Assembly: GCA_902782835.1 (NCBI GenBank)
Contig: CACZOQ010000113.1
Coordinates: forward strand, 1 to 44,384
Reading direction: 5' to 3'
From: an uncultured Erysipelotrichaceae bacterium
Lineage (GTDB): Bacteria > Bacillota_I > Bacilli_A > RF39 > UBA660
DNA: 44,384 bases
Shown: piece by piece, positions 7,901-25,989 of the stretch
How positions within the stretch are numbered: position 1 is the first letter of the stretch
How the letters are laid out: every line of letters starts with the position of its first letter
The notes under the pieces: model-generated
Database searches by the model: none
Told to the model about the DNA's origin: nothing
What the model saw: the letters and a program-made list of their open reading frames with translations, nothing else
Position numbers and translations under genes: made by a program

Positions 7901-10250
7901 TGCAACTGTTGATATTGATGATGATACTAAAACAGTTACTAAAAACGTCGATAATCGTATTTATATGATTCCTGGACAGAATTTGAATGTAACTATTAAC
8001 CAAGCTGCTACTGCTTATGGTAAGGTTACAGGTATGACGTTCTTTGGGATGTATAATTCATATGAAGGTGGAACGTATCGTTTTGGTTTATATGATGATG
8101 ATGTTAGTTATGGAGATACCGGAAATGCTAGTATGGCAATTGTTGGTGGTAGTTATGTTATTGGTTTACGGAATGATAATCATGATATAACGAAGGATGG
8201 ATTCTATTCAAATTATTTGGATGAAGAAACTTATACTGACATCTATACAGCTTATATTGATCCTACTCCTATTGGTAAGACTGGATATCGTTGGGTTATC
8301 GGTTTTGAAGCAATTAGTTATGAATTTACTTTACAAGCTTCTAGGTATTCTTCTTTGGGAACTTATGAATTACAATTGATTGACTTTGCTGAAGGAGATA
8401 CATCGTTTACTGTATTAGGATTTGATAGCAATGGTTTAAACCCTGAATTATCTTTAGTTGATTCTAATTTGGTACCAAGAGTTGGTGCTTCTGAGGAGGA
8501 AGCTAATAGTATCTTTGGTCTTTCTCTAAAAGTTGAGACTCAAGAGTGGACTGGTTATGGAACAACTAAATTATTGAGTAATGGTGGTGGCCAGACTACT
8601 GGGGATCAAGAGTATCGTACCGATAGTCGTCAGCTTCCACCTTCTATGATGTTCTATTTATATCATGCTAAAAATATTACTTGTTCAGGTAATTTAGGAA
8701 CGGTAGTTTTGACAATGCAAGGTGCTGTTCCAAAGAATGAGATTGATTATGAAATTAAATTCATTACTGTAACGATTCATTTAACTGCTATTAATGTAGA
8801 TGCTGATAGTTACGATGCTTCTATTACGTATGATAAGAAGTATGAATTACCTTCTTCTACAGATGTTAATATAACGAACCAAAGTCAATTTAGTGCTTAT
8901 TATTCTTTAACGACATTTAAAGATGATTTTTCAAAAGTATATGGAAATAATAATGATAATGTTCACGTATTAGTAACAAATTATCCACTTCCTGTTAATA
9001 CAATGATTACCATGCTTGATTATGGTACGAATCCTAATCGTCCTGAGTATTATTATTTCCGTATTAATCAATCTGTTTACAATGATTCTATTACACAGCT
9101 AAACCAGTATAATGAAATAACTTATCGTCTGAGTCAATTCATTAAAATGGATAGTACTAGTACAAATAATACATATAATGATGCATCGGCAAACTTATCG
9201 TATTATGATAATACTTCACATCTGGTCGATGAAGAGTTTATGTTTATATTTGACTTTAAAGAATGTACACAGGTTACAGGAGATCATTTGGGCAATACGA
9301 TGTTGTTTGAACTTCGAAACCCTGAGGATCGTACGATTTTTAACGTATTAGGTATTCGTGAATCAATCATGGTTTATAATACTTATGAAAGTAGTAATGT
9401 TGTTTTAAACCAAACAATTGCAGACACGGATTCTTACTTATACTATAATGTTGCAGATCAATTTAGTTATTCTACAGAAGTTCTATATAATGAAACTGAA
9501 AACCGTCAACCAGTTATTGATACTAATTATGAATCTAGTAAAATGGGATTAAATGTTGTATTTATCGATAAAGATGGAGAAAAAGTAAGTTCCAGTCTAT
9601 TAATTGGTACAAGTATTCATATTGGTACGCAAGAATACTTTGCTGATGGTGATGGTGTGTTCCGAATTAAGTTAGCAAATAAAGTTTCGAATTTAAATCG
9701 AGCGGCTAGCATTACGGTTAATAAAGACTTGCCTTCTGGACAGTATACTGTACAATACTATCTATTTGCTTCGGATGATGGTCTTCATAATTCTTATGTT
9801 GAAAACTCTGTAATGGAGGAGTTTACGGTAAATGTAGTTAGTGCTGATAATGCTATTATTGTAGATTGCGAGGATCCGATGAAAGTTGTAGATGGAACAA
9901 CTGGTCTAAATATGGATAATACAAATATCAATACTTATACGGTTAAGTATTATTCTCATCTTTCTAATCCAAACTTTAGAATTGAAGTATTTAAACGTGA
10001 TGTTTCAACTATTGACTCTACAACCTTTACTTCTGTTCCATTCAGTCAATTATTTACAAACAATCTTACTGTTGTACGAGGAAACGAAGTATCATTCTCA
10101 ATGGGTGGGGATGATGAAAAGGACTTTAATTTTGAACTTCAAAGAAATCTTACAAGTGGTACGTATCGAATTGTCTTCCGTCTATATGACAGTGATCAGT
10201 TAATTGATGAAGAGACTAAATACGTGATTGTTAAGAAAAAAACCTCATAA
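1995..10250 (+). CDS. giant (2751 aa) secreted or anchored beta-helix repeat surface protein, adhesin-like
   Basis: RBS AAGGAAGTGAG lies before ATG 1995. N-terminus is a Lys-rich region plus one TM helix followed by TAVFSYSE. It has a G-x-G-S-x-x-NPYVI motif and an F-x-G-H-F-N-G-D-G-F-S-L (GLUG-like) motif. About 30 copies of [VF][YF]GG[GSN] occur at roughly 20-25 aa spacing, giving a parallel beta-helix look. The long C-terminal region has no recognisable motif. Confidence 0.85.
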   Translation: MKQNNIDTKKVFIVFVAALFLLIGSFSIYTLITAVFSYSELEEKWDGVTVATSFSGGNGSAENPYVIKDASEFVYFQSLIEGESYEAYQDKYYILGNDIDFNGHTLTPIGARYGGKRIFNVEDHDDDNFLDVVDNDTSDVVDDNTSDDVDDNQADEDEPLDDKEDEERFFKGHFNGDGFSLSHFVIKQPDVIDDVSYYSLFSKTVDAEIVHLNMEDVTICPEENEIIKDDEEDEKIVVSLLVGHSSSTEEHKALFADFSVSNLKLDIHNVTSEGTIFRPFIGTISDEIEIQKVFIAGEMIGNVFENDISFIPSEYKTSVSYVIDGIKLTDIRKENLYMEGISYYYSLIGGEFYINGDIVPLDSVLEVFNENTVADYYWEFKDDKISIHKFKPVQLKEIPALSQAFSFSIRRSGAIPLHNTGVEGTNVYVNDLTSDYNYYMGLNYVTSPNETLPTRENKGLYGASNLAKVYIHYSSADYSDDTVFGRVSVADNYTDFYYYKYYPIVDGKVTFDLIDNPWANRPSGKSFNGWITDYEGAEISIDMGHYVRSVTIPIVDGNTDISIDFYSAWKEETLVTGTNFNGLDSPGMVMYEPTYEYDYGDVSSYYIKRTQAAFTNYPTGAVIYTMAGVRIGATRCTTYPGGCDYLIQSNSAIAEPGAEYYILTFSDPPGPNAISVTQVQPTLTMFSPFNAGDLVAGNFEKVTKTRNSSIEGLYNFNGVMQHGNCNANTCELYQMVQFYNEYGNINEVDLNKIYYYLVTRDTNIMVLTGNVNGFNVTKPVTITSINNGVNGNHTITVNSSNNAMRLDADARIEYVNLNSSASASSSLYSSTGSRASNSIIGNYHNLKIGRGVMTTNTNRRINVFGGTSMSNTVSLGNSQTGTTYPFSLIIESGRINSIYFTESRSGKGTLVLDAFCVMGSDLDRVKGVDTNLDVYYSFQGNAGNNVLRTSTDHGRVYDLYVKSGRYGTSKADIFTGIYVGGRGASVFGTRALTIEGGYIYSVIGGLGSTEEQKNYNVIYIYMKGGSADAVFGGSGSGETYGNRIVSVTGGTVNYSVFGGSNGSTVGTTGDSGILNGDSYVYVGGSAHIGGGSGQLFRADAGNVFGAGAGNTNQDGLGSVNNSNIVINGDAIIEKSVYGGGNYGSVGAKSTSSVSTTNVLVLGGTIKESVYGGGNNNGSGTSTRVTATLNIDIQGGSISQSVYGGSRTTGVIYGGTNVTISGGTIAGDVYGGGEGGYTNNNSPGTYVRDSVNVTINNGTISGSVYGGSAYGIVNAANRNTNTSNATTTVTINGGTVTNNVFGGAKGSNSYTPKVVGNITVNMNNGSVGNVFGGFDASGKPGSGDIVYLNGGTVGNAYGGGNNADQTTSDIRLQGTTINGNLYGGSNETGTVTNSYVTVTSGSVSDIFGGNNLAGTTVNTHVTITNGTITGDVYGGGNQANSTNTSVSINGGDLNDVYGGGLSAGVSNSTHVTFNSGSADNVFGGSNTLGAVNDTVVNVNNTSGSGIVAVYGGNNLGGTTDTSTVTISDGTIVEVYGGGKKVGINSTIVNANGGEIDSVYGGSNIEGDVTTSHVNVGNVVGSTVTIGDVYGGNNAGGVTTDTNVHVYSGTITNVFGGGENADVGATNVIVDGGIITDVYGGGNAAGVGNDTSLDINGGTITNNVYGGGNEGIVQGNTNVTITNAAVQGNAFAGGNGSTAVVYLNSVITIDGTTEIGTSSSEAPNDGCVFGSGNAASTGLESTNNSKAIVYIAGGIIHGNVYGGPKMAVVYGTTEANVGLSAVTSSVAKLQAEDDANQEVELFVPDVNPASLTEGNIVISGTVFGGGESNASGSTTYDWNFVSVTKGITVTVDGTGYENHSHNFVINGSIFGSGNASTSSGTSLIYIKNLGTTAHPNKGISIQRANYLEIDHTVIELSGATDRTNQFGNILYSFNIIDKMVIKNDTTLLLQHNANLLQELYSGVDSGNTLVPATVDIDDDTKTVTKNVDNRIYMIPGQNLNVTINQAATAYGKVTGMTFFGMYNSYEGGTYRFGLYDDDVSYGDTGNASMAIVGGSYVIGLRNDNHDITKDGFYSNYLDEETYTDIYTAYIDPTPIGKTGYRWVIGFEAISYEFTLQASRYSSLGTYELQLIDFAEGDTSFTVLGFDSNGLNPELSLVDSNLVPRVGASEEEANSIFGLSLKVETQEWTGYGTTKLLSNGGGQTTGDQEYRTDSRQLPPSMMFYLYHAKNITCSGNLGTVVLTMQGAVPKNEIDYEIKFITVTIHLTAINVDADSYDASITYDKKYELPSSTDVNITNQSQFSAYYSLTTFKDDFSKVYGNNNDNVHVLVTNYPLPVNTMITMLDYGTNPNRPEYYYFRINQSVYNDSITQLNQYNEITYRLSQFIKMDSTSTNNTYNDASANLSYYDNTSHLVDEEFMFIFDFKECTQVTGDHLGNTMLFELRNPEDRTIFNVLGIRESIMVYNTYESSNVVLNQTIADTDSYLYYNVADQFSYSTEVLYNETENRQPVIDTNYESSKMGLNVVFIDKDGEKVSSSLLIGTSIHIGTQEYFADGDGVFRIKLANKVSNLNRAASITVNKDLPSGQYTVQYYLFASDDGLHNSYVENSVMEEFTVNVVSADNAIIVDCEDPMKVVDGTTGLNMDNTNINTYTVKYYSHLSNPNFRIEVFKRDVSTIDSTTFTSVPFSQLFTNNLTVVRGNEVSFSMGGDDEKDFNFELQRNLTSGTYRIVFRLYDSDQLIDEETKYVIVKKKTS
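2385..2450 (+). repeat. imperfect 24-nt tandem repeat (about 2.75 units) encoding DVVDNDTS/DVVDDNTS/DDVDDN
   Basis: GATGTTGTTGATAATGATACTTCG (2385-2408), GATGTTGTTGATGATAATACTTCG (2409-2432) and a partial third unit (2433-2450). It sits inside an Asp/Glu-rich insert of the giant ORF. Confidence 0.85.
5050..7620 (+). repeat. degenerate coding repeat array ([VF][YF]GG[GSN] beta-helix rungs) within the giant ORF
   Basis: The translation shows about 30 rungs, e.g. SVYGGGNYG, DVYGGGNQA, NVFGGSNTL, DVYGGNNAG. The long spurious ORFs in other frames and on the opposite strand (5580-6086, 6534-6803) fit a biased repetitive composition. Confidence 0.8.
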
Positions 10251-10301: not shown

Positions 10302-11039
10302 ATGAGAAAGTTTTTACATTGGGTTTGGTCGTTTTTAGAAGTCTTTATTATTGTTTATGTTATTTTAATTACTTCTTTTATTCTTTGTCGTAATAAATAT
10401 GGATATACTCAGTTTGGAAATTATACTTTTCAAAATATTGATTTAATCGATGAAAGAAATATTCAAAATACGAAAAAGGGTGATTTATTAATTGTTAAGA
10501 ATAGTAATGATATTCATGTTGGTGATTTGATTTACTATTATGCAGCATATAATGAAACTTATATTATTCGTAGTGATTACGTTACAAAAATTGATAGTGA
10601 TGATTATAGTTCTCTCTATACTGTTCATAGAGGAGATGATGACATTACAATTTCAAGTACAAGACTTTTAGGAAAATATGCTAATACTTATGGAACTCTT
10701 GGTAGTGTTCTTCAAGTATTGGAGAGTCGTATTGGATTCTTATTCTTAGTATTACTTCCTATTATGATTGTTTTCATCTATCAAGTATATGAATTTATTG
10801 TGATTATCCGTTATGAAAAAGTGGAAGATATAGAAGATGAAGAAGATTCTAGTTCTAAACAAGAAGAAGTAAAGCCTGTTGCAAAGGAATCAAAAATTTC
10901 AACAGCAACTGTTGAAAAAGAAGAAACTTCATCAAGCGTTCCTGAAGAAAAAGTGGAAAAAAATGTTGATAAGTTCCAATTTTTCCAAGAGGAAGAACCA
11001 AAAAAAGAAGAATCTGAAGAAGAAATTGAAATTTTATAA
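10302..11039 (+). CDS. SipW-like pseudo-peptidase (catalytic Ser and His not conserved) with an acidic C-terminal tail
   Basis: Same architecture as the two SipW genes: N-terminal TM, beta-rich ectodomain, C-terminal TM (LFLVLLPIMIVFIY) and an acidic tail. The SGSM position reads FGNYTFQNID and the THR position reads YIIRSD. Only the RGDDD (GD) box is kept. RBS AGGATGGTGA. Confidence 0.7.
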   Translation: MRKFLHWVWSFLEVFIIVYVILITSFILCRNKYGYTQFGNYTFQNIDLIDERNIQNTKKGDLLIVKNSNDIHVGDLIYYYAAYNETYIIRSDYVTKIDSDDYSSLYTVHRGDDDITISSTRLLGKYANTYGTLGSVLQVLESRIGFLFLVLLPIMIVFIYQVYEFIVIIRYEKVEDIEDEEDSSSKQEEVKPVAKESKISTATVEKEETSSSVPEEKVEKNVDKFQFFQEEEPKKEESEEEIEIL

Positions 11040-11069: not shown

Positions 11070-11078
11070 TGTTATAAT
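11070..11078 (+). promoter_or_regulatory. candidate extended -10 element (TGtTATAAT)
   Basis: TGTTATAAT at 11070-11078, immediately after the terminator and 20 nt before ATG 11098. Confidence 0.35.
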
Positions 11079-11097
11079 GTTAATAATAGGAGGAAGT

Positions 11098-11718
11098 ATG
11101 AAAAATAAGTTCAATCCCAAAAATATTGTTTTTGTTTTGTTATTGATTTTAGGCGCTTGCTTCCTATATTGGGGGTCTAAGATTACTTATACCTCTTATG
11201 AGTCCATGATTGAAGGATCGGCTAGTAGCCATACGGCAGGAATAAAAATTAAAATTAATGGTGTTAACGTGCTTGATAGTTCTGCCGTTTTGGATGATCG
11301 TATTATTTTAGATAATACTACTTGGGTTTCTACACATACTAGGGCTGGGAAACTATCTCCAGGTAGTCGCGGAACAATTGATTTACAATTAGATCCAACG
11401 GGTAGTGAGGTAGCGATTCTTTATGAGTTCCAGTTTGTCGATAAAGTAATTGATGAAGATAAATTGATTAATTTTGATTCTATTACTTGTGATGATACAG
11501 GTTTTACTCGAACGGCTGTTGATACGTATAGTGGTATATTAACAATGAATGATGTTATGGACGGAAAAAAAGTAAATATTTCAGTGGACTTTTATTTTGA
11601 TTATTTAACCGATATTGAAGGTATTACAGAAGATAATCAGACGTTGGATGATTTATTTGAAATTCATTTTCATGCAATACAATATAATGGAGAAACATTA
11701 GTACCTTATTCAGGATAG
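11098..11718 (+). CDS. TasA/camelysin-like secreted protein with a SipW-cognate-type N-terminus (paralogue A)
   Basis: Strong RBS AGGAGGA precedes ATG 11098. The upstream ATG at 11077 sits inside the -10 box. Lys-rich n-region, one hydrophobic helix, then KITYTSYES. The beta-rich body has GKLSPGSRGTIDLQLDPTGSE and is clearly paralogous to 18656-19243 (VLAPGSTGHFDIVVNAED). Confidence 0.6.
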   Translation: MKNKFNPKNIVFVLLLILGACFLYWGSKITYTSYESMIEGSASSHTAGIKIKINGVNVLDSSAVLDDRIILDNTTWVSTHTRAGKLSPGSRGTIDLQLDPTGSEVAILYEFQFVDKVIDEDKLINFDSITCDDTGFTRTAVDTYSGILTMNDVMDGKKVNISVDFYFDYLTDIEGITEDNQTLDDLFEIHFHAIQYNGETLVPYSG

Positions 11719-11727
11719 AGGAGTTTT

Positions 11728-12339
11728 ATGAATATAATCAAGGATAAAATTAAGAATATAGAATATGTTGATGAGAAAATTCGTTTTCTTCTTTTTGTGT
11801 TCTTCTTATTTTTTGTTCTTTTCTTAGCTCGTTATTTATTAGGAATGGCTTATTCTCGATATGAGGTTCGTACTAAGATTAATTCTAATATTGATAAAGC
11901 TTTATATATTTTTGAAGATGAAAAGCTAAGTTTTAATTTGGAACCAGATGGTATCATTCCTAGCAATGAACCATATACTTATCGTTTTAGTATTTCTAAT
12001 CATAATGCTTCTAAGCAAAGTGATGTAGATATAGCTTATAATGTTAGTTTACGAACAACAACGAATTTACCAATTACGATTCAGTTATATCGTAATGAAT
12101 TGCCTAGTACTCCAGGAGCTTCTAATGTTTTACAAGGAGCTGTTACTGCACAAGATGAGGATAATGCATGGTATCGTATTTATAATTGTAATAGTCAATA
12201 TCAAATGAATTATGTAGATGAGGTTACGGATTATTATACGATTGTGATTCATTTTCCAGCATCTTATTCTTCTAATTTAAACTATGCAAATTATATTGAA
12301 AGTATTGAGGTAATTATAGATTCTAATCAAATTATTTAA
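11728..12339 (+). CDS. secreted protein with a SipW-cognate-type N-terminus, distant TasA-like (paralogue B)
   Basis: RBS AGAGGAG. TM helix followed by GMAYSRYEV. The body has IIPSNEPYTYRFSISNHNAS, analogous to the TasA KPGD...F.NNGS block. Confidence 0.45.
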   Translation: MNIIKDKIKNIEYVDEKIRFLLFVFFLFFVLFLARYLLGMAYSRYEVRTKINSNIDKALYIFEDEKLSFNLEPDGIIPSNEPYTYRFSISNHNASKQSDVDIAYNVSLRTTTNLPITIQLYRNELPSTPGASNVLQGAVTAQDEDNAWYRIYNCNSQYQMNYVDEVTDYYTIVIHFPASYSSNLNYANYIESIEVIIDSNQII

Positions 12340-12350
12340 GGAGGGATTTT

Positions 12351-13289
12351 ATGAAATTTGTAAGAAAACATAAGACGGCAAGCATTATTGTTATGGTTTT
12401 TTTCACTTTGTTTCTTACGATTGCGATTGCTTTTGGTCGTTATATAAAAAATATTCTTAATAATTATATATTAGAAACGAAATCTTTTTATTTTAATAGT
12501 AGTATTTTAAATATTAATGGAAAGAATTATGCTATTACGAACTGGGATGGTGTTAATTCTTATAGTTTAACCATCGATTTGAATAACCGCAAAAGTGAAG
12601 AACGTTATACTAAAACTGATATTTCTTATAATATTTTAGTTTCTTGTCCAACTACTGTTGTATGCACACTTAATAAAACAGCTGGAGTCATCCATCCTGA
12701 GGATGAGACAGATAGTTATATTATAACGGTTACACCTCAACAGAACTTCCATGAAGGAGATACCGTTGTTGTGCAAACATCCGTTACGTCGGTTTCTCCT
12801 TATCAAAAAACATTGAGTGCTACCTATACTATCGGAGTTGAGAAAAGTGATTTTTCTTATGATATTGTTGATAGTGTTAATGCTAAATTTTTAACAATGA
12901 ATTTTACGAATGCAATTTCTTTCTATCAAGTTGAAACTGCATTTGCAGGACATGCTGTAGGAGAACATATTAGTTTGGATGAATATAATGAATTGTCTAC
13001 GAATGATCGTAATAATTGTTTCTCTGCTATTGTTACGGTTCAGTATGATCCTCATGATTTGTTTGTTGATATGACAAATGAATTATTTATTAAACGGTTA
13101 TCGGGAAATGGTTATTATGCAGAAGAAACAATAGGTGGATTTGCTTACGTCAAGAAATTTACATTTAAAGTACCGGCTAGTTCAAGTAGCTCTATTATCT
13201 TTTATAAGGATGATGTAACTGAGAATTATACTTATCCGATTGTAAATAATACGTCTGCTATTCAAGTTTCTGTAAATCTTGCAAATTAG
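12351..13289 (+). CDS. secreted protein with a SipW-cognate-type N-terminus, larger TasA-like candidate (paralogue C)
   Basis: RBS AAGGAGGG. TM helix followed by AFGRYIKN. Beta-rich, Ser/Thr/Asn-rich body (SYSLTIDLNNRKSE). Confidence 0.4.
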   Translation: MKFVRKHKTASIIVMVFFTLFLTIAIAFGRYIKNILNNYILETKSFYFNSSILNINGKNYAITNWDGVNSYSLTIDLNNRKSEERYTKTDISYNILVSCPTTVVCTLNKTAGVIHPEDETDSYIITVTPQQNFHEGDTVVVQTSVTSVSPYQKTLSATYTIGVEKSDFSYDIVDSVNAKFLTMNFTNAISFYQVETAFAGHAVGEHISLDEYNELSTNDRNNCFSAIVTVQYDPHDLFVDMTNELFIKRLSGNGYYAEETIGGFAYVKKFTFKVPASSSSSIIFYKDDVTENYTYPIVNNTSAIQVSVNLAN

Positions 13290-13322: not shown

Positions 13323-13338
13323 TTATTTGATAGGATAG

Positions 13339-14397
13339 GTGATTTATGTGGACAATTTAATTAACGTATATATGAATTATAAAATGAATCGCCTTACTGA
13401 GTACGGTGTTTTGCTATTTCAACAAGATACCGTTTTTATTCGACAAGTGATGGAAGGATATATTCGGACATATATCGATAATTGCTATTATGGAATATTT
13501 AATACAATTGATGATAGTCATTTTAATTTGAAAAATCTAAAACTTGAGTTTGATGGAATTATGGTTGAAATGCTTGAAGATTATCGGGTTTATGAATTAC
13601 AAGTTAGTAATCAAGAGTATACTGATAATCGAAAAATGATAGAGGACTTGAATCCATTTTGCTTAGAACTGATTAAAATTGATGATTTAGAAATTGATAA
13701 TAAGGATAGTATTCCAGCTAAAGTTGAAGAATTTATACATAAAAATAAATTTTTTTCTGATAAGAAAGAGGTTGTTTCTAAATTGATTTCTCTAGTGAGA
13801 GAAACTTTTGTTACTTCTAAAAAATTATTAGATTTTACTGATAATTATTATGTTTTATCTGAACGTAGTTTTGAAGGACAAAAAGATATTATATATTTGG
13901 AGATGGTTCCTAATATTAAATCTTTAGAGATGTATCGTTCTAGTTTAGTGCAGAAGGTATATCGTGATGATCGATTAGAAATATCTAAGATAGAATGTTT
14001 ATTACAAAAGGTATCGTTATTGTTACTTCGTAATGTTTTAAAACATGATAAATTGAATACTTATTTTATTCAATTTCCTGATGGAGTAATCAGTCGTGGT
14101 AAGATTCAACATTCCATTTTATCTTTGATGGATAATCCTATCATTCGTAAACATGTTATTGTAGGAGTTTCTTATAATACATATTTAAATCAAAAAATTG
14201 CATTTGTAGAAGATTACCAATTTGGTTGTATTCAAGATTTTACACATATTCATGATGTATATCAGAAGACAGATACAATCTATAAAGAAGGAATATTTAA
14301 TTATCTTCTTGTTTGGGATTGTAAATACCGTGATCGTGATTATTTCTTAGGATATAATCCAGAATCTATGAAAACATTGGTATTTGAGGAGGATTAA
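13339..14397 (+). CDS. hypothetical cytoplasmic protein (352 aa), first gene of the AAA+ cassette
   Basis: Long ORF with no TM helix or signal peptide. The start is uncertain (GTG 13339, GTG 13348 or ATG 13372). Its stop at 14395-14397 is 1 nt from the next ATG. Confidence 0.6.
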   Translation: MIYVDNLINVYMNYKMNRLTEYGVLLFQQDTVFIRQVMEGYIRTYIDNCYYGIFNTIDDSHFNLKNLKLEFDGIMVEMLEDYRVYELQVSNQEYTDNRKMIEDLNPFCLELIKIDDLEIDNKDSIPAKVEEFIHKNKFFSDKKEVVSKLISLVRETFVTSKKLLDFTDNYYVLSERSFEGQKDIIYLEMVPNIKSLEMYRSSLVQKVYRDDRLEISKIECLLQKVSLLLLRNVLKHDKLNTYFIQFPDGVISRGKIQHSILSLMDNPIIRKHVIVGVSYNTYLNQKIAFVEDYQFGCIQDFTHIHDVYQKTDTIYKEGIFNYLLVWDCKYRDRDYFLGYNPESMKTLVFEED

Positions 14398-14398
14398 T

Positions 14399-15931
14399 AT
14401 GAGTACGTATATTCGATTTTTATTTGAATTTATGTCGGTTTTCTTTAAGGGAATCGGAATGATTGTAGGAGGTTTCTTTAAAGGAATTCTACAATTGTTT
14501 AATATACAAGAATACATGTATGTTATTGAGTTTTATCGAAGTGATTTAAATGTTGCTGAATGGATATTAGTAGTGGTTGCTGTTATAATTATGTTTATTG
14601 TTTTAGCACTCATTATTTTATTAATTGTATTCTTTATTAGAAAATATATGAAATTTCGAAAAACTCTTGTAGAACAAGAGTCTATGCTTCAAGAAATAGG
14701 AGAATTAAATCGAGAAGTTGCTACTTTAGTTGAAGAAAAAGAAAAGATTTTAGCTATGAAGGTTTCTCAACTTGGATTGAAACCTGATGAAGAAGCTACT
14801 GTTACAGAAGAAGAGACTGAAAGTACTGAGACTCTTGATGGAGATTTGGATAGTTATCGATTTAGTAAACTTCATGCCATTGATTTACAATTTCGTGATT
14901 ATAAGATTCAACAGTATAATAACACCTTTACTTTGGAAGAGTTAGTTGAATCATTTAGAAATTTCTGTGCTTCTAAGTTAAAACTTTATTATACGACAAA
15001 CTTAATACGTTTATTTATCTCTGGTTTATCAGCTACTAAATTGGTTATCTTACAAGGTATTTCTGGTACTGGTAAAACTTCCTTAGCTTATGCTTGGGGT
15101 AAATTTATTCGAAATGATGCTATTATTGCTTCTGTTCAACCATCTTGGCGTGATCGTACCGAGTTATTTGGTTATTTCAACGAGTTCACAAAAAAGTTTA
15201 ATGAAACAGAAGTTTTAAAGGGATTATATTTAGCTGGTTATACAGATGATGTTTATGTTACTGTACTAGATGAAATGAACATCGCTCGTGTTGAGTACTA
15301 TTTCGCTGAAATGTTATCTATTCTAGAAATGCCTTCTAGAGATGAGTGGATTGTAGAACTTGTTCCAAGTGCTTGGGATAATGACCCTAAGATGTTAAAT
15401 TCTGGAAAACTTCAAATCCCTGGAAATATGTGGTATGTTGGTACAATCAATAACGATGATTCTACGTTTGCTGTTACTGATAAAGTGTACGACCGTGCTA
15501 TGCCAATTGATATTAATGATAAAGGACAACCTTTTGAACCTATTGATACCGATTCTATGAATATTAATAGTTCTTATTTGGAAGGTTTGTTTGCAGAAGC
15601 TAAACAAAAACATCCTCTATCTAGTGAGATGGAAAATAAGATTAATGAGATGGATGATTATGTTATTAAACATTTCCGTATTGCTTTTGGTAACCGTATT
15701 GTTAAACAAATGAAAGATTTTGTCGCAACTTATATTGAATGTGGTGGTACTGAAGTTGATGGTGTTGATTATTATATTGCTCGAAAGATATTGCGTAAGT
15801 TTGAACAATTAAACCTAGCTTATATTCGTGATGAAATCGATCCATTTATTGAATTTTTAGATAAGATGTTTGGAAAAGATAATTTTAATGAGTGCAAAGA
15901 ATATCTAACAAGACTTAAGAAACTTGTATAG
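14399..15931 (+). CDS. membrane-anchored McrB-like AAA+ NTPase (GTPase-type)
   Basis: RBS GAGGAGGA precedes ATG 14399. N-terminal hydrophobic helices (WILVVVAVIIMFIVLALIILLIVFFI), a coiled-coil, then an acidic linker. Walker A is GISGTGKTS and Walker B is VTVLDEMN. The McrB-type segment MNIARVEYYFAEMLSILE and GTINNDDSTFAVTDKVYDRA compare with E. coli McrB DEINRANLSKVFGEVMMLME and GLMNTADRSLAVVDYALRRRF. Confidence 0.75.
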   Translation: MSTYIRFLFEFMSVFFKGIGMIVGGFFKGILQLFNIQEYMYVIEFYRSDLNVAEWILVVVAVIIMFIVLALIILLIVFFIRKYMKFRKTLVEQESMLQEIGELNREVATLVEEKEKILAMKVSQLGLKPDEEATVTEEETESTETLDGDLDSYRFSKLHAIDLQFRDYKIQQYNNTFTLEELVESFRNFCASKLKLYYTTNLIRLFISGLSATKLVILQGISGTGKTSLAYAWGKFIRNDAIIASVQPSWRDRTELFGYFNEFTKKFNETEVLKGLYLAGYTDDVYVTVLDEMNIARVEYYFAEMLSILEMPSRDEWIVELVPSAWDNDPKMLNSGKLQIPGNMWYVGTINNDDSTFAVTDKVYDRAMPIDINDKGQPFEPIDTDSMNINSSYLEGLFAEAKQKHPLSSEMENKINEMDDYVIKHFRIAFGNRIVKQMKDFVATYIECGGTEVDGVDYYIARKILRKFEQLNLAYIRDEIDPFIEFLDKMFGKDNFNECKEYLTRLKKLV

Positions 15932-15945
15932 TAGGAGGTGAGTAG

Positions 15946-17061
15946 ATGGATACTCTTGAAAAGGAAGAGGTATTAGATGATGATGAGTTATTTCTTCATA
16001 ATTTGAATTCAACCTTACATGTAAAAAAAGATTATGACATGAAAGACTTTGACTATGAGTGGTTGACTATTATTGAAGATGTTCTTCCTTACCTTGATAA
16101 TATTTTGAAAAATCCTAAGCGATTTATTATCAATGAAGAAGAAGTAGTTAAAGTTGAACTTGCTCGTAGAGTTACAGTTGAATCTGTTATTCATCTATCT
16201 CAGCATACTAATTTAATTCAAAAAATTGAAGATAATGGTGATGTTAAACCTTCTAAGATTTTAAATATTAATAAAGAAGAAAGTATGGATACTTATGAAA
16301 ACCGTTTTATATTTACTTTATTAAGTAATTTGAGGTATTTCTTTGAACAAAGAGTATCTGTTACTTCGGGGGCTAGCTATTGTTTAGATAAAAACTTATT
16401 GAAGTATGAAGCTAATACAAAAGTTTATGGAGAAGATTTGAAGATTAGTATTGATGTTAATGATATTACTAAAAATATCAAAGAACATTCTGGTGATCGT
16501 GGTAATATGACTTTTGAAGATCGTATTCGTAAGGCTAAAACACAAATTGATGGTTTTTTTGGAACAGAATTAATGCAAAATTTAGCGAAACTTCATTTTG
16601 ATCCTGTGCGTAGTCCTATTAAAAAGACAAATGTTATTTTGAAAAATCCTAATTTCCGTAAGGCTGAAGAATTATGGAATTATATTCAGTCTTTTGAAAG
16701 TAAAGATAAAAGAGAAAAAGAAAAAAGAGAATTCTTTGATAAGGGAATTTTAAAGAATGAATATGATCAAGCTTTCTTAATGGCTTTTATTGCAAATAAG
16801 AATTTTATTAGTAGTAGTACTAATACAACGGAGTCTAATATTATTAATCAAATGATTCAAAGATTAGTAGAGAATTTATTAGATACTGATTCTGAACTAA
16901 CGGAAGATAAAATTGCGGAAGCATTTGGAAAGCAAATACAAATTATAAAAGAAAAAAATGCAACTCGTGCTGATACTATTTATGGTGTTTTAAAAGATCG
17001 CCTTGATCGAGAGAATAACGCGATGAATGACGTATTGTTGTATTTCCAGAAAGAGGCGTAA
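15946..17061 (+). CDS. McrC/DUF2357-like partner protein without an obvious nuclease domain
   Basis: RBS AGGAGG. The motif DTYENRFIFTLLSNL resembles the conserved x-ENRF helix I recall from McrC-like/DUF2357 proteins encoded next to McrB-like ATPases. It is only 371 aa and the C-terminal half is helical, with no clear PD-(D/E)xK block. A weak LD...EDLK candidate is present. Confidence 0.45.
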   Translation: MDTLEKEEVLDDDELFLHNLNSTLHVKKDYDMKDFDYEWLTIIEDVLPYLDNILKNPKRFIINEEEVVKVELARRVTVESVIHLSQHTNLIQKIEDNGDVKPSKILNINKEESMDTYENRFIFTLLSNLRYFFEQRVSVTSGASYCLDKNLLKYEANTKVYGEDLKISIDVNDITKNIKEHSGDRGNMTFEDRIRKAKTQIDGFFGTELMQNLAKLHFDPVRSPIKKTNVILKNPNFRKAEELWNYIQSFESKDKREKEKREFFDKGILKNEYDQAFLMAFIANKNFISSSTNTTESNIINQMIQRLVENLLDTDSELTEDKIAEAFGKQIQIIKEKNATRADTIYGVLKDRLDRENNAMNDVLLYFQKEA

Positions 17062-17062
17062 A

Positions 17063-17878
17063 ATGAAAGGAATTGTTGATAATAAAATTTTTCGGATTTT
17101 ATTTGGAATTATAAAAGGTTTTTTTATAACAATTATTGTTATTTATTTATTGTTTATTTTATTTCAAAGATTATCTGGAAACCGTAGTTTATTTGGATAT
17201 CGTATGTTTACAGTTGCGTCTGGTTCCATGGCTGGTGTTTATGAAATCAATGATGTTATTGCTGTTAGAGATTATGATATTAAGAAATTAAAAATAGGGG
17301 ATGACATTGCTTACCGTGGAGTTCGTGGTGGTTTAGAAGGAATGCTTGTAACCCACCGAATCATTCGAATTGAGAATGGGACGAATGGTGAGAGAATATT
17401 TGTTACACGAGGAGTGAATGCACCTGCTGAGGACCCTTCTGTTTTAGAAAATCAGATTATGGGAAAAGTTGTTGGAGTTGTTCCAATTATATCTCCTTTA
17501 AATCATGCTGTTAAAAGTCAATTAGGATTTTTCTTACTTATCTTTTGCCCACTTGTAATTGTTATTGTTTTAGAAGTATTACAGACCATTACGGATATAC
17601 AATTGGAAAAAAATGAAATACAAGAAATTCACAAAGAAAGTACAAAATCTAAAAAGAAATTTAAACAAGATAATAATCATGTTGAAGAAAATAAACAGGA
17701 AGAAGATTCAAGTGAAAAATTTACTTTTACAGAAGAAGAATCTTCTAAGGAAAAACAAAATGAATCCCGTGATGAGATTCAGGTTAGTGAACATGAAAAA
17801 AGAGAAAGTGAAACGTACATTGAAGTACCAGAAGTTGTAGAAATGAAAGAAGAACGAGAAAAAATAGAAATCATATAG
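17063..17878 (+). CDS. sipW: SipW-type (S26B) signal peptidase I with an acidic/Lys-rich C-terminal tail
   Basis: RBS AAGAGG at 17051-17056. ATG 17063 lies 1 nt after the previous stop. N-terminal TM, FTVASGSMAGV (Ser), VTHRIIRI (His), TRGVNAPAED (first Asp of the GDxN box is Val, second Asp kept), C-terminal TM, then a charged tail. Confidence 0.8.
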   Translation: MKGIVDNKIFRILFGIIKGFFITIIVIYLLFILFQRLSGNRSLFGYRMFTVASGSMAGVYEINDVIAVRDYDIKKLKIGDDIAYRGVRGGLEGMLVTHRIIRIENGTNGERIFVTRGVNAPAEDPSVLENQIMGKVVGVVPIISPLNHAVKSQLGFFLLIFCPLVIVIVLEVLQTITDIQLEKNEIQEIHKESTKSKKKFKQDNNHVEENKQEEDSSEKFTFTEEESSKEKQNESRDEIQVSEHEKRESETYIEVPEVVEMKEEREKIEII

Positions 17879-17886
17879 GAGAAAAT

Positions 17887-18633
17887 ATGGGAAAGCAAAT
17901 AGACAGAGAAAAGTTAGCTGCTTTAAATGTTAAGTTTAGGAAGCATAAATATCTTAGTATCTTACTAGCACTTTTTACGTTAGGTGTTAATATTTTCGCT
18001 TGGTTTGCTTTTTCTTCTAGTGCTGGTCTTCAGCTAGATGCAACAGTTGCATCTTGGGATGTTGAATTTAAAGATAATGGTGTAGTTTCTCGTAATATTT
18101 ATATCGAGATTACTAAGATGAAACCTGGTATGACTACTTATGAAAAAACTGTTGAAGTTGATAATAATAGTGAGGTACCAGCTACTTTCCGTTATGAAGT
18201 TATTTCTGTTACTCTTTTAGGAAATACTTTAGATCTTACTCAGTATAGTAATATTGATACACACTTACGACAGTTCTATCCGTTTTCGATTCAATATGCT
18301 GCTAATAAAACATCATTAGCTGGTAATGATAGCCTTGAGTTTAATGTACAAGTATCTTGGCCTTATGAGTCTAATACTCCACAATATTTTTCTCAAGATG
18401 ATGTTGTTTATGATTTTAATGAGTCTTTCATTTATTATTTAAAGAATGGAACAAATTATGAAGAGACAACGATAGCGAATGAGACTGCTTTTACGAATCA
18501 GAAAAGTAATTTATATTTAATAAAAGATGATGCTGACAGTTATTTTGGTATGGCTTGTGGTAGTTATGAGAAAGCTACAGGAGAACCATGCTTGACTATG
18601 AATATGAGATTATATGTTGAACAAGTTAATTAG
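17887..18633 (+). CDS. TasA/camelysin-like secreted protein (paralogue D, closest to TasA)
   Basis: One TM helix, then DATVASWDVEF, KMKPGMTTYEKTVEVDNNSEVPATFRYEV. These align by eye with TasA DATFASGTLDL, NLKPGDKLTKDFQFENNGS. Confidence 0.65.
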   Translation: MGKQIDREKLAALNVKFRKHKYLSILLALFTLGVNIFAWFAFSSSAGLQLDATVASWDVEFKDNGVVSRNIYIEITKMKPGMTTYEKTVEVDNNSEVPATFRYEVISVTLLGNTLDLTQYSNIDTHLRQFYPFSIQYAANKTSLAGNDSLEFNVQVSWPYESNTPQYFSQDDVVYDFNESFIYYLKNGTNYEETTIANETAFTNQKSNLYLIKDDADSYFGMACGSYEKATGEPCLTMNMRLYVEQVN

Positions 18634-18641
18634 AAAAATAA

Positions 18642-18669
18642 AAATGCCTAAGTGATTAGGCATTTTTTT
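18642..18669. terminator. bidirectional rho-independent terminator between convergent genes
   Basis: AAATGCCTAA (18642-18651), loop GTGA, TTAGGCATTT (18656-18665). An A-run lies upstream and a T-run downstream. The hairpin contains the minus-strand stop codon (18656-18658). Confidence 0.75.
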
Positions 18670-19243
18670 GTGTGAATTTAATGGATACTTTCATTTTTGT
18701 TTCTTCGTTTGCTTCATCAATTGCATATTCTGTATCTGCTTGATTGTTCATTTGATTGGTTGCATCATCATTCCATTTAAAGAATACTCTAAATGTTGTA
18801 TCTGTACTATTTTTTGTTAACTCTCCTGTTATTTTTCCTGTTTGTGTAAAATTATAATTCGTATCATTAATTGTGTATCGTGTAAAGACTAAATCTAATA
18901 GAGGAGTGCTATCATCTACAACACATGTTATTTCATAATTAAAATCAACATCTACATCTTCAGCATTTACTACTATATCAAAGTGGCCTGTACTTCCTGG
19001 AGCAAGGACTCCATCATTTACATACTCATTTACATCAAATACAGGTGTAATTGTGTTGGTTAATTGAGTTTTATTGCTAATATCTTCATCATTAACCTTT
19101 ATATTCCAACTAGCTATTCTAGCCTGCATTTCACCTTTTACTTGTTTTCTATATTTTGCATAGGATGTCTGAAATAAGTATAAGAGTGATAATGTCAGGA
19201 GTAATACAAAAAGAATTAAAAATCGTCTGTCGTTTTTTTTCAT
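18656..19243 (-). CDS. TasA/camelysin-like secreted protein (paralogue E)
   Basis: MKKNDRRF plus a hydrophobic helix, then TSYAKYRKQ...ARIASWNIKVN, then VLAPGSTGHFDIVVNAEDVDVDFNYEI. Paralogous to 11098-11718 and 17887-18633. Confidence 0.6.
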   Translation of the reverse strand: MKKNDRRFLILFVLLLTLSLLYLFQTSYAKYRKQVKGEMQARIASWNIKVNDEDISNKTQLTNTITPVFDVNEYVNDGVLAPGSTGHFDIVVNAEDVDVDFNYEITCVVDDSTPLLDLVFTRYTINDTNYNFTQTGKITGELTKNSTDTTFRVFFKWNDDATNQMNNQADTEYAIDEANEETKMKVSIKFTQKNA

Positions 19244-19254
19244 TTCTATTCCCT

Positions 19255-20313
19255 CTATCTATTTTCGTAAATTTCTATCCAACTTCCAACCCAACCACCT
19301 TCATCATTAAAGACTTGTCCAGTTACTGCTTGAAAGGTTGAATCTGTCATTCTTCTTAACTCAAACCACTTTCTACTGCCACAGGTATTGGCTACAAATG
19401 TTTGGTCATTACTTGGATCATATCCTACTAATGATACCCAATGAGCATGAGGGCCACCATTATCAAATACATCCCCAAAATTGTTATTTATTTTTTCAGC
19501 TTCTCTTAGGTCTATTACTACGGTGTGATTTTTTTCTAAAGCTTCTCTTATTTCATTATAATATGCATCGGCTGTTTGTGGTAGGGAAGATTTTGGATGT
19601 GTTCTCACTTTTACTGTTTTTGACAGTTTTCCCTGTTTTTGTAGATTTTTGATTGCTGTTTCATGAGATTCTACACTTACATCTGAGCCAGCCTGATTCA
19701 CTTCAACAGGATCTCCTTTATAACCATAAGCACTTAATGCGGAGGTCAATGTTGTAGGACCACATCCTCCTGTTGAAAATGATCTACCATCTCTTAGTGT
19801 AGCTTGTGAAAAAGAAGCTTCATTCTGTCCATATACTTCATATGTTGTATCTCCAAATGTGATTCGAAAATGGTCTCCTCCTACGTCTTGTACTTGGGTA
19901 GAACTAACACCATTATATGATAGGTCTTCTTTATTTTGAATTTGATTTCCTTTTTGATAGTCATCTCCACCGATTATTTTTTTTGAATCTTGTTCTCCTT
20001 GATATGATGTTGCTTGTTGTATGGATGATTTTTTTAAATTCCAGCATTCACTAAATGTATTTTTATTTCCGGTAGCATTTATAAAAACATTTATAAACAT
20101 TGGTATAAAAAATACTAAGACAGCTGCGATAAAGGAATTTCTAATTCTTGGAAATAATTTTTTATTCTCTGGATCTTTTAACATCTTTGTAAGATTAATC
20201 ATCGACATCAATATTAGTATTATAGGTACTATTGTTTGTATGAGTGTTACTATTCTTTTGGCGATGATGATAAATGTTCCTACTGAACCGGAACATTCCA
20301 ATATCTCTATCAT
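19255..20313 (-). CDS. membrane-anchored papain-like (Peptidase_C39_2-like) cysteine peptidase with a shared N-terminal two-helix module
   Basis: ATG at 20313 is preceded by AAGGTG. The GTG at 20322 lies within the RBS. The N-terminal roughly 125 aa are paralogous to 34812-35825. The C-terminal domain has GGCGPTTLTSALSAYG (Cys) and HAHWVSLVGYD (His). Confidence 0.65.
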   Translation of the reverse strand: MIEILECSGSVGTFIIIAKRIVTLIQTIVPIILILMSMINLTKMLKDPENKKLFPRIRNSFIAAVLVFFIPMFINVFINATGNKNTFSECWNLKKSSIQQATSYQGEQDSKKIIGGDDYQKGNQIQNKEDLSYNGVSSTQVQDVGGDHFRITFGDTTYEVYGQNEASFSQATLRDGRSFSTGGCGPTTLTSALSAYGYKGDPVEVNQAGSDVSVESHETAIKNLQKQGKLSKTVKVRTHPKSSLPQTADAYYNEIREALEKNHTVVIDLREAEKINNNFGDVFDNGGPHAHWVSLVGYDPSNDQTFVANTCGSRKWFELRRMTDSTFQAVTGQVFNDEGGWVGSWIEIYENR

Positions 20314-20404
20314 ATTTATCACCTTATTTTTATTCTATCATATTATTTATTTTTTGAATAGCATTTTCTTATTTTGTGGTAAGATAAAAATAGGTGATTT
20401 TAAT

Positions 20405-24969: not shown

Positions 24970-25989
24970 ATGAATTTTGATTTATCATGGTTTTCAACAA
25001 TACCTGGATTATTAATTACAGGTGGAGTTATTTTATTAATTATTGCTTTGATATTATTACTATTTGGTAGAAAGAAATCAAAGAAAGCTAAAGAAGGAGC
25101 TCAAGTACCTGCACCTGCAGATTCTAATGTAGTGGCTTCACCTGCAGCTAATCCTGCAGAGGTTGCTGTTGCACCTGCTGATCCAATGGCAGCTGTTGCT
25201 GTTACACCTGTTGATCCAATGGCAGCTGTTGCTGTTACGCCTGTTGCGGTAGCAGATTCTACGATTCAACCAGTAATGCCTGAACCTGTTGCTGTTACGC
25301 CTGGCACACCAGATATTACTATAACTCCAGTTCCAGCAATGCCTGAGGCTGCTGTTGCACCAGCTCCAGTTACACCAGAGGTTGCTCCTGCACCAATGCC
25401 AGAAATGGCTCCTGTTGTGCCTGCAACTCCTGAAGTTGCAACTCCTCCAGCAATGCCTGAAGTTGCTGCTGCTCCAGTTGTTGATCCTGTTGCCGTAGCA
25501 CCAGAATCTGTTGTACCAGTTCCTGCTACACCAGAGGTTGCCCCTGCACCAATGCCAGAGGTAGCTCCTGTTATACCTGTGACTCCAGAACCTGTAGCAC
25601 CAGCAATGCCAGAAGTACCTACAGTTTCTGAACCAATTACATCAGAGGTTGCACCAGTTCCTGCTACACCAGAAGTAGCACCTGCTGTTGCTACTGCTAG
25701 TCCAGAACCTGTTATTTATGGTGGAGCTAGTCCAGCTGTTACAGATATTAATATTAATCAAGATAATCATCAAATATATGGTGGAGCTGATCCATTGCAA
25801 AATACGCAAACAATTCCAGCTGTTGCTCCAATTGCACCTGCTGTAGATCCAGTAGTTGCTGCTCCTCAACCTGCTGAAGTTGCTCCAGTTGTTATGCCAA
25901 CTCCAGAAGTTGCTCCTGCACCAATGCCTGAGGTAGCTCCTGTTGCCCCAGTTGCACCGGTTGCTCCTGCAAGTCCAGTTCAACAATAA
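24970..25989 (+). CDS. membrane-anchored Pro/Ala/Val-rich repeat protein (low complexity)
   Basis: RBS AGAGGGAG. N-terminal TM (IPGLLITGGVILLIIALILLLFG) plus KKSKKAKE, then about 290 aa of P/A/V/E repeats (TPEVAPAPMPEVAPV three times). Two YGGA[SD]P motifs occur near the C-terminus. Confidence 0.8.
   Translation: MNFDLSWFSTIPGLLITGGVILLIIALILLLFGRKKSKKAKEGAQVPAPADSNVVASPAANPAEVAVAPADPMAAVAVTPVDPMAAVAVTPVAVADSTIQPVMPEPVAVTPGTPDITITPVPAMPEAAVAPAPVTPEVAPAPMPEMAPVVPATPEVATPPAMPEVAAAPVVDPVAVAPESVVPVPATPEVAPAPMPEVAPVIPVTPEPVAPAMPEVPTVSEPITSEVAPVPATPEVAPAVATASPEPVIYGGASPAVTDININQDNHQIYGGADPLQNTQTIPAVAPIAPAVDPVVAAPQPAEVAPVVMPTPEVAPAPMPEVAPVAPVAPVAPASPVQQ
25180..25245 (+). repeat. 33-nt tandem duplication (two units, one mismatch) encoding DPMAAVAVTPV
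   Basis: GATCCAATGGCAGCTGTTGCTGTTACACCTGTT (25180-25212) is repeated at 25213-25245 with A->G. Dispersed copies of ACCAGAGGTTGCyCCTGCACCAATGCCAGA lie near 25371, 25526 and 25900. Confidence 0.85.

Follow-up and report, generated by a model that had tools for sequence, protein, structure and literature searches.

A predicted membrane-anchored McrB-like NTPase and its nuclease-less McrC-like partner in a cluster of SipW-type signal peptidase and surface-protein genes

Introduction

McrBC is a textbook GTP-dependent restriction enzyme, and in the E. coli system the N-terminal DUF2357 domain of McrC inserts into the McrB ring and stimulates its GTP hydrolysis. Here, we describe a pair of genes for an McrB-like AAA+ nucleoside triphosphatase (NTPase) and a short McrC-like protein, preceded by a gene for a protein of about 350 residues (g352), which lie in a 44,384-nucleotide stretch of DNA from an uncultured Erysipelotrichaceae bacterium (GenBank assembly GCA_902782835.1, contig CACZOQ010000113.1), the whole of which is referred to below as the window. 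Sequence comparison across related loci indicates that the NTPase/McrC-like pair is the invariant, slowly evolving core of a cluster of genes for SipW-type signal peptidases, signal-anchored proteins and a giant protein, and we use this distribution, together with the conservation of each member and structural models of two of them, to weigh what such a pair may do at the cell envelope.

The three-gene cassette and its junctions

The window is low in GC (~30%) and carries nearly all of its genes on the + strand. The cassette itself, the peptidase gene that follows it and the hairpin at the end of the operon are as follows.

13339-14397, + strand: g352, a cytoplasmic protein of 349 or 352 residues with an N-terminal helical domain and a putative degenerate EAL-like alpha/beta domain
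14399-15931, + strand: McrB-like AAA+ NTPase of 510 residues, with a hydrophobic N-terminal helix, a transmembrane (TM) segment, a coiled coil, an acidic linker, the AAA+ core and a C-terminal helical domain
15946-17061, + strand: McrC-like partner of 371 residues, a DUF2357 domain split by a variable insert and then a non-conserved helical or coiled-coil tail, with no nuclease
17063-17878, + strand: signal peptidase I of the SipW type, in which the motifs ASGSM and THRII are present
18640-18667: symmetric hairpin (A-run, GC hairpin, T-run; AAAAATGCCTAATCACTTAGGCATTTTT), terminator-like on both strands and placed on the - strand in the scan listing, between convergent genes

All three open reading frames (ORFs) of the cassette are present in the ORF list where a preliminary description of this DNA had placed them, and the tight coupling that it reported is exact to the base. 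The g352 gene ends with TAA at 14395-14397, one base ahead of the NTPase start codon (ATG 14399), with GGAGG upstream; the NTPase gene ends with TAG at 15929-15931 and is followed by a 14-nt gap containing AGGAGGTG and by ATG 15946 of the McrC-like gene, which in turn ends with TAA at 17059-17061, again a single base from ATG 17063 of the SipW-type gene. The motifs quoted in that description (GISGTGKTS, VLDEMN, IARVEYYFAEMLSILE, GTINNDDS...DKVYDRA and TYENRF) can all be read in the translations. The start of g352 is another matter, the database gene caller beginning at GTG 13348 to give 349 rather than 352 residues; a TGaTATAAT box said to precede the gene is unsupported, since a promoter consensus scan returned only a 9/12 site at 13327-13356, and promoter-like sites are in any case fewer here than in shuffled sequence. 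On the + strand, no terminator-like site was found between 9.5 kb and the symmetric hairpin, and Rfam and tRNA scans of the window returned no riboswitches and no RNA genes.

A predicted membrane-tethered NTPase of the McrB family

Residues 150-372 of the NTPase align with the E. coli McrB structures 6UT6, 7VSR and 6HZ4 (phmmer against the PDB, E 6e-6), and the NCBIfam McrB model PRK11331 matches at 5e-6, well under its equivalog cut-off. The best match found anywhere was to the PADLOC candidate PDC-M26A (2.3e-34), confined to profile positions 302-436 of 724 and thus to the shared GTPase core. In an alignment of 15 homologues, reaching down to 32% identity, the Walker A residues G220, G223, G225, K226 and T227, the Walker B residues D291 and N294, and the arginines R297 and R366 are all invariant, as are N351 and D353 within a signature that reads G-T-x-N-x-D-[DE]-S-T. 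As it is this N351/D353 pattern that is conserved, the signature is NxD and not the canonical NxxD. Judged by its motifs, the protein retains everything catalytic that is expected of an AAA+ domain of the McrB family, in the NxD variant, which places it in the NxD sub-clade as defined by Bell et al. (PMC11090510); the family assignment made from the bare sequence therefore stands, with the qualification that this is not a canonical NxxD McrB.

Ahead of the core, residues 1-35 hold a conserved helix of hydrophobic or amphipathic character; an acidic loop comes next, then the one strong TM segment (Kyte-Doolittle score 3.76 in the window 47-87), and after it a cluster of basic residues (RKYMKFRK), a heptad-like stretch and a variable acidic linker. 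This architecture is kept throughout the 15 homologues, and Pfam finds no DNA-binding family in the N-terminal 150 residues, in agreement with the view that the DNA-binding domain of McrB has been replaced here by TM, coiled-coil and acidic-linker segments; where several hydrophobic TM helices had been supposed, one is strong and the other may be amphipathic. On the positive-inside rule, the N-terminus would be a hairpin of N-in/C-in topology that leaves the AAA+ domain cytoplasmic, and we regard the NTPase as a predicted membrane-tethered protein. The same type of N-terminal domain has been called FtsB-like (PMC11090510); no DivIC/FtsB domain was matched in Pfam at E <= 0.1, so that only the architecture, and not homology to FtsB, is confirmed.

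A McrC-like partner without a nuclease

The McrC-like protein passes the Pfam model for DUF2357 (PF09823) with 48.4 bits against a cut-off of 23.3, the match covering residues 17-135 only. Across 117 orthologues (334-874 residues long), conservation is limited to residues ~39-135, which include an invariant YENR, and ~217-246; the C-terminal 120 residues are unconserved, and no D...(D/E)xK pattern is conserved in the set. There was no PDB sequence match, no PADLOC match and no Pfam match outside DUF2357. The AlphaFold2 model, itself of low confidence, consists of helices, one beta-hairpin (152-171) and long C-terminal helices, those at 235-370 being of mixed confidence, with no alpha/beta nuclease core; it drew from Foldseek only insignificant matches to coiled coils and stalks and is too poor to interpret at that level. 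Where Clostridial orthologues are longer, what they add is coiled coil and not nuclease (the L084 protein has many coiled-coil Pfam matches). The protein is on this evidence genuinely without a PD-(D/E)xK nuclease and appears to keep only the McrB-activating DUF2357 domain, much as the preliminary description had suspected of a DUF2357-like partner this short.

Distribution, linkage and conservation of the cluster

Close relatives of the NTPase in the database number more than 8000, the top 120 of them at 81-91% identity, and the McrC-like partner has 2731 (71-84%); g352 has only 53 (40-60%). An exhaustive search of representatives at 50% identity gave 765 NTPase clusters at E < 1e-30, whose N-termini are of a short-TM type, as in the window, multi-TM or long coiled coil. 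At least 595 loci with an NTPase relative occur among GTDB species representatives, the best 80 being found in metagenome-assembled genomes of Bacilli, 'Tenericutes' and Erysipelotrichaceae at 60-89% identity and in Clostridia (Acutalibacteraceae, Ruminococcus and Oscillospiraceae) at 51-58%. The AAA+ gene is followed by an McrC-like gene in every locus with room for one, and a SipW-like gene, detected with a SipW profile, lies within 6 kb of the NTPase in all 56 species-level genome loci with adequate flanks, from Bacilli to Clostridia, and in 85 of 96 loci overall.

In close relatives among the Bacilli, the whole ~17-kb cluster is syntenic, running from a giant protein through SipW paralogues, three small signal-anchored proteins and the 350-residue protein to the NTPase, the McrC-like protein, SipW, a small protein and, in convergent orientation, another small protein. 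When the window genes are compared with those of nine of the loci surveyed, identity is highest for the NTPase (57-89%) and then falls through the McrC-like gene (30-82%) and the surface-protein genes (24-70%) to g352 (20-51%), the gradient to be expected where a core engine in the cytoplasm is joined to exposed parts that evolve quickly. The cluster is flanked by housekeeping genes, for an rRNA methyltransferase, a pseudouridine synthase and glycosyltransferases, and 2.9 million viral contigs yielded only 15 distant matches, all to the core, with the clade of the window not found among them.

Fixed linkage, highest conservation, housekeeping flanks and absence from viral contigs together make the cassette unlike defence cassettes. 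A survey of whether this clade keeps company with SipW genes or with defence islands had been suggested at the outset, and the answer lies with SipW. The cassette had also been described as 'welded into' a surface-protein operon; given linkage in 56 of 56 loci and the synteny, the NTPase/McrC-like pair is better seen as the ancestral core of the cluster than as an insertion into it.

SipW-type signal peptidases

Three SipW-type paralogues are found in the window, two of them upstream of the cassette.

649-1980, + strand: SipW-type paralogue of 443 residues with intact ATGSM, THRLI and TKGD motifs, two TM segments and a C-terminal extension
10302-11039, + strand: pseudo-signal-peptidase, a SipW paralogue without the catalytic Ser and His

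The gene to which the cassette is coupled (17063-17878) had been named as a SipW peptidase and its product passes TIGR02228, the model for signal peptidase I of the archaeal/SipW type, with 67.8 bits against a cut-off of 51.85, while falling short of the equivalog cut-off for Bacillus SipW (75.9 against 190). The 443-residue paralogue matches Pfam Peptidase_S24 (6e-6) and, by phmmer, SipW2 (3e-15). The third protein has weak matches to TIGR02228 and SipW and a phmmer match to SipW2 (7e-9) but fails the TIGR02228 score and catalytic-residue tests, with DLIDE in place of SGSM and RSDYV in place of THRII; an alignment shows the same catalytic loss in its orthologues in loci L005 and L029, so that it is a conserved pseudo-peptidase. 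The pilus cluster of Streptococcus pyogenes offers an analogy, though no more than that, in the pilus chaperone SipA/LepA, which has a signal-peptidase fold without catalytic residues; the streptococcal pili are assembled by sortase, whereas no sortase or LPXTG protein was seen in the window.

The g352 protein and its fusion to SipW

No sequence family was found for g352 in Pfam, PADLOC, NCBIfam or a PDB profile search, nor in Pfam searches with 36 members of its family. The AlphaFold2 model, built with 42 homologues, is a confident one (pLDDT, the predicted local distance difference test, 91.4; predicted template-modelling score, pTM, 0.86) and is composed of a six-helix N-terminal domain (residues 1-161) and an alpha/beta C-terminal domain (168-346). 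Among the 25 top Foldseek matches in the PDB, 22 are EAL domains, including those of Bd1971, FimX, RocR and MorA. The family alignment has an EAL-like pattern of strands and helices, with IQDF(S/T)H where DDFGTG would be expected, and the domain ends before the last EAL strands, so we describe the C-terminal domain as degenerate and EAL-like, at the level of the predicted fold only.

A profile seeded only with ORFs of 280-420 residues adjacent to and upstream of the NTPase, with which the search remained stable, placed a g352-like domain directly upstream of the NTPase in 71 loci; an uncontrolled iterative hidden Markov model (HMM) search had drifted into the SipW family (from 37 to 203 to 295 hits) and was discarded. 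In about 20 of the 71 loci, the domain forms the C-terminal part of a protein of 620-756 residues, which begins with a SipW domain in which QTGSM, THR and GD are intact and continues through a second TM segment and a charged linker to a g352-like domain of full length (positions 3-320 of the 333 in the HMM, E ~1e-45). The SipW part of these fusions in sister lineages is apparently active, and from the topology of SipW the g352-like domain should be cytoplasmic, attached to the peptidase and beside the NTPase. The fusion argues for a functional tie to the peptidase. Clostridial loci lack the g352 domain and have SipW, apparently active by its motifs, directly upstream of the NTPase, and since they keep the NTPase, the McrC-like protein and SipW, the core function would not need g352.

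Surface proteins of the cluster

The remaining genes of the cluster encode proteins with N-terminal hydrophobic segments.

1995-10250, + strand: giant surface protein of 2751 residues with an N-terminal signal-anchor (TM residues 5-38) and Gly-rich repeats
11077-13289, + strand: three small secreted or anchored proteins of 213, 203 and 312 residues, putative fibre subunits
17887-18633, + strand: secreted 248-residue protein with a signal-anchor, the last gene of the + strand operon
18656-19243, - strand: convergent secreted 195-residue protein, a paralogue of the 213-residue protein (phmmer 2e-11), conserved in position

The giant protein, for which there is no Pfam family, is the conserved first gene of the cluster, orthologues of 2850-3025 residues occupying the same position. 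In each of the three small proteins upstream of the cassette, whose positions are also conserved, an N-terminal hydrophobic segment is followed by an aromatic-small-x-Tyr motif, and all five small proteins and the giant one have in common a basic N-terminal region, the hydrophobic segment and this motif, with plausible type-I cleavage sites on a direct reading of the translations. Between the families of small proteins, only this N-terminal region is common (hhalign 86%). The preliminary description had taken the neighbours of SipW for TasA genes. Neither sequence nor profile comparison detected any similarity to TasA, hhalign against mature TasA giving a probability of 0.2%; the test is insensitive, as the same single-sequence comparison missed the fold-supported EAL relation of g352.

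Two side observations concern the edges of the cluster. In locus L003, an insertion sequence element (14270-15510; rve and helix-turn-helix transposase genes) separates the convergent small-protein gene from the final + strand gene of the cluster, which is otherwise intact. At 34-543 of the window, there is an ORF of 169 residues without a Pfam family, whose homologues of ~500-550 residues (about 530) in L022, L029, L037, L040 and other loci are regularly found near the giant protein, often just upstream, and which may be a further component of the cluster.

Variants of the module

A sister variant was found in 13 metagenomic loci (L128:1-10918, L092, L115, L119-121, L127, L130, L131, L133, L143, L149 and L156). 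Its NTPase of ~500 residues keeps the TM hairpin, its McrC-like partner has 600 residues, and its giant protein is cadherin-like with a C-terminal TM anchor, ~2000 residues long in one complete example. The slot of g352 is occupied by a gene for a 419-residue single-TM protein that overlaps the NTPase start; this protein gave 0.1% in hhalign against g352 and nothing in Pfam, and a reading by eye as a degenerate GGDEF-EAL protein of the LapD type found no confirmation in Pfam or hhalign.

A further form of the NTPase, of ~600-625 residues (about 607) and with a longer N-terminus, was found in a further set of loci (L093-L107, L135, L137-138, L144, L146, L148, L154-155 and L159-161), where a gene for a 340-residue SipW-like protein (ASNSM, IHRII, TRGD) overlaps its start. 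With the McrC-like protein of the window as query, phmmer found at best a very weak McrC-like gene downstream (E 2e-5 to 4e-4 in L137, L154 and L155) and, in most of these loci, none. SipW linkage is absent from coiled-coil relatives of ~745 residues, and a coiled-coil relative of 837 residues is the only one to match PDC-M26A along its full length. The broadest common denominator of the module is a giant surface protein together with a membrane protein gene that is translationally coupled to the NTPase, SipW being usual and not universal.

Relation to described systems

The preliminary description did not recognise the arrangement as one already described. It has in fact been named: in a survey of McrBC systems, Bell et al. 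(eLife 2024; PMC11090510) gave the name CoCoPALM to NxD-clade McrB proteins with a TM and coiled-coil N-terminal domain that are linked to genes of the signal-peptidase family, in one paragraph that offers no gene-level analysis and defers it to a future paper. A full-text literature search found the term only there and in the preprint of the same work, and turned up no subsequent study in which McrB, pilus and signal peptidase are connected; a search of PubMed Central and bioRxiv for PDC-M26 returned nothing. The window module has the NxD McrB-like GTPase with its TM and coiled-coil N-terminal domain, the signal-peptidase genes, the Firmicute host and an McrC homologue that lacks a nuclease and is modelled with long C-terminal helices, possibly coiled coil, nothing in it contradicts membership, and it is by these features a member of the CoCoPALM class, known until now by name only. 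Beyond the published description, new here are the EAL-like partner with its predicted fold and its SipW fusion, the pseudo-peptidase, the gradient of conservation, the constant proximity of a giant adhesin, and the cadherin-linked variant that has no SipW.

With the E. coli McrBC of 6UT6 and 6HZ4, the module shares the AAA+ core over ~220 alignable residues, the Walker A and B motifs, an Asn/Asp signature and a DUF2357 partner. It differs in that the signature is shortened to NxD, a TM segment and coiled coil stand in place of the DNA-binding domain, the partner lacks PD-(D/E)xK, and the genomic context is one of surface-protein biogenesis rather than of restriction-modification or defence. 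The CoCoNuTs, predicted defence systems whose McrC homologues are often without an active nuclease (PMC11090510), are related through the NxD GTPase clade and through coiled coils, as is PDC-M26, whose PDC-M26A profile matches the GTPase core of the window protein; CoCoNuTs, however, combine long coiled coils of soluble type with additional nucleases, HEPN domains or helicases, whereas the window has a membrane anchor and no effector genes.

The SipW-TasA-TapA system of Bacillus and the AbpA pili resemble the window in that an archaeal/ER-type signal peptidase stands beside small secreted, plausibly fibre-forming proteins. They have no NTPase, whereas the window adds three SipW paralogues, one of them inactive by its motifs, and a 2751-residue protein. 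Donor-strand exchange, with no NTPase involved, is how TasA of B. subtilis and the archaeal bundling pili polymerise (PMC9674648 and PMC9245690). Two further systems are comparable by analogy only: in FimX-PilZ-PilB, a degenerate EAL protein couples to a hexameric assembly ATPase, the EAL domain of FimX being among the fold matches of g352, and in LapD-LapG-LapA, a degenerate EAL protein governs the extracytoplasmic protease whose substrate is a giant adhesin. Neither the ATPase nor the protease is homologous to its counterpart in the window (PilB is of another fold class and LapG is a Cys protease), and with its motifs degenerate, binding of cyclic di-GMP (c-di-GMP) by g352 is putative.

A proposed role in fibre and adhesin assembly, and its alternatives

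We consider it reasonably probable that the pair is an McrBC derivative taken over for envelope biogenesis, acting as a motor or gate for SipW-dependent assembly of fibres or adhesins. A non-restriction role tied to the export or assembly of fibre proteins was one of the two readings first put forward for the cassette, and it fits the invariable SipW linkage in species-level loci, the high conservation of the NTPase, the absence from viral contigs and the housekeeping flanks; Bell et al. read the arrangement in the same way. Six NTPase subunits would form a ring at the cytoplasmic face of the membrane, held there by their N-terminal hairpins and coiled coils, and the McrC-like subunit would plug the ring and stimulate GTP hydrolysis, as E. 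coli McrC does. The variable helical tail of the McrC-like protein and g352 could then pass conformational work to the SipW peptidase, such that hydrolysis powers or gates the cleavage, release and polymerisation of the membrane-anchored fibre subunits and the giant adhesin, the outcome being a machine for sortase-independent assembly of a pilus or adhesin; the degenerate EAL-like domain may make a step of this assembly signal-dependent, possibly under second-messenger control. More tentatively, the CoCoPALM class as a whole might represent an unrecognised class of NTP-driven machine for the biogenesis of sortase-independent pili and giant adhesins, with an EAL-like adaptor coupling the ring to SipW.

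Several observations weigh against an assembly motor of this kind. For every member, the proposal rests on sequence and models, and the model of the McrC-like protein (36 homologues) is poor, with a pLDDT of 60.7. A motor is not obviously needed, because TasA and archaeal bundling pili polymerise without an NTPase, and the small proteins, at most possible TasA-like proteins or pilins, have no match in Pfam or NCBIfam, with PDB profile searches empty. As for the adaptor, the EAL matches of g352 are modest (Foldseek probability 0.75-1.0, E 3e-3 to 0.2, TM-score ~0.2-0.4), no Pfam EAL match is found in 36 family members, a PDB profile search gave nothing relevant and hhalign against an EAL consensus gave 0.1%. 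SipW itself is missing within 6 kb from 11 of the 96 loci, and no SipW-like gene lies in the flanks of the cadherin-linked variant, up to 8 kb on each side; because of these SipW-less loci and that variant, the constant partner may be the giant surface protein rather than SipW. Lastly, PDC-M26A, the closest PADLOC model, is a candidate defence protein.

The first alternative is that no mechanical work is done on substrates at all, the ring and its McrC-like subunit instead being a slow GTPase timer or checkpoint that senses a cytoplasmic signal, such as a cyclic dinucleotide, through g352 and toggles SipW on the outside, as inside-out signalling in the style of LapD-LapG-LapA or FimX-PilZ-PilB. 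The resemblance of the C-terminal domain of g352 to degenerate EAL receptors such as FimX, its fusion to SipW in sister lineages, the giant adhesin that is always adjacent and the established ability of TasA-type fibres to form without a motor would all suit such a switch. We nevertheless think it rather unlikely: most of the ligand and catalytic motifs of a canonical EAL domain are gone (IQDF(S/T)H for DDFGTG), there is no sequence-level EAL signal in g352 and no c-di-GMP riboswitch or other Rfam element in the window, g352 is dispensed with in the Clostridial loci that keep the NTPase, the McrC-like protein and SipW, and 57-89% identity is a degree of conservation that a hexameric AAA+ protein serving as no more than a switch would not usually need.

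The other reading first put forward was that of a membrane-associated anti-phage or abortive-infection module, sitting in the fibre operon or guarding it, for example by sensing phage DNA at a pilus receptor. McrBC descent, the match to a candidate defence protein (PDC-M26A, 2.3e-34, the best in PADLOC) and the predicted defence role of the NxD-clade CoCoNuT relatives lend it some appeal, but the match covers the core only and extends to full length only in the 837-residue coiled-coil relative, the McrC-like protein and g352 match no PADLOC model, and no nuclease or other effector is present. Nor is the locus a variable island: the position is fixed and the neighbours are the same in 56 of 56 species loci of two classes, no gene of the cluster is better conserved than the NTPase, contrary to the patchy occurrence and quick turnover that defence genes typically show, housekeeping genes flank the cluster, and viral contigs hold only the 15 distant core matches. 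This reading we regard as very improbable. Slightly more improbable still is a general envelope or cell-division factor whose linkage to fibre genes is incidental operon organisation, for, while a TM and coiled-coil N-terminus resembles FtsB/DivIC-type proteins (PMC11090510) and the NTPase is conserved like a core gene, there is no Pfam DivIC/FtsB match at E <= 0.1 and no division gene nearby, the linkage to SipW, secreted and giant-protein genes persists across distant lineages with rearranged gene orders, and the SipW-g352 fusion argues for a tie to the peptidase.

Were the assembly role to hold, the module would plainly exemplify the recruitment of a defence motor to cell-envelope assembly, and uncultured gut bacteria would, for some of their SipW-dependent fibres and giant adhesins, require a cytoplasmic machine that consumes energy, which TasA does not. 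The module is carried by at least 595 species representatives, many of them abundant gut and rumen Firmicutes, and the fusion of SipW with its putative adaptor suggests a concrete and testable wiring that runs from the NTPase through the McrC-like protein and the EAL-like domain to the peptidase.

Other genes of the window

A GC spike at 24970-25989 (0.47 against ~0.30, with negative GC skew) coincides with an ORF of 339 residues, for which there is no Pfam family, and no rRNA, tRNA or Rfam element is found there. Adjoining the fibre cluster on the - strand (19255-20322) is a gene for a membrane protein of 355 residues with a T4SS_pilin (VirB2/TrbC-like) N-terminus and a Peptidase_C39_2 domain, both at ~7e-7 and over their Pfam cut-offs, which is missing from some syntenic relatives; an ORF at 34812-35825 (+ strand) has a weak T4SS_pilin match (5.7e-4). 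After three glycosyltransferase genes, the window encodes at 28530-32555 (+ strand) a protein of 1341 residues with a prepilin-type N-terminal methylation motif (Pfam N_methyl, 2.9e-8), which would make it a giant type IV pilin-like protein, and this arrangement is kept in relatives (in L001, with 1425 residues).

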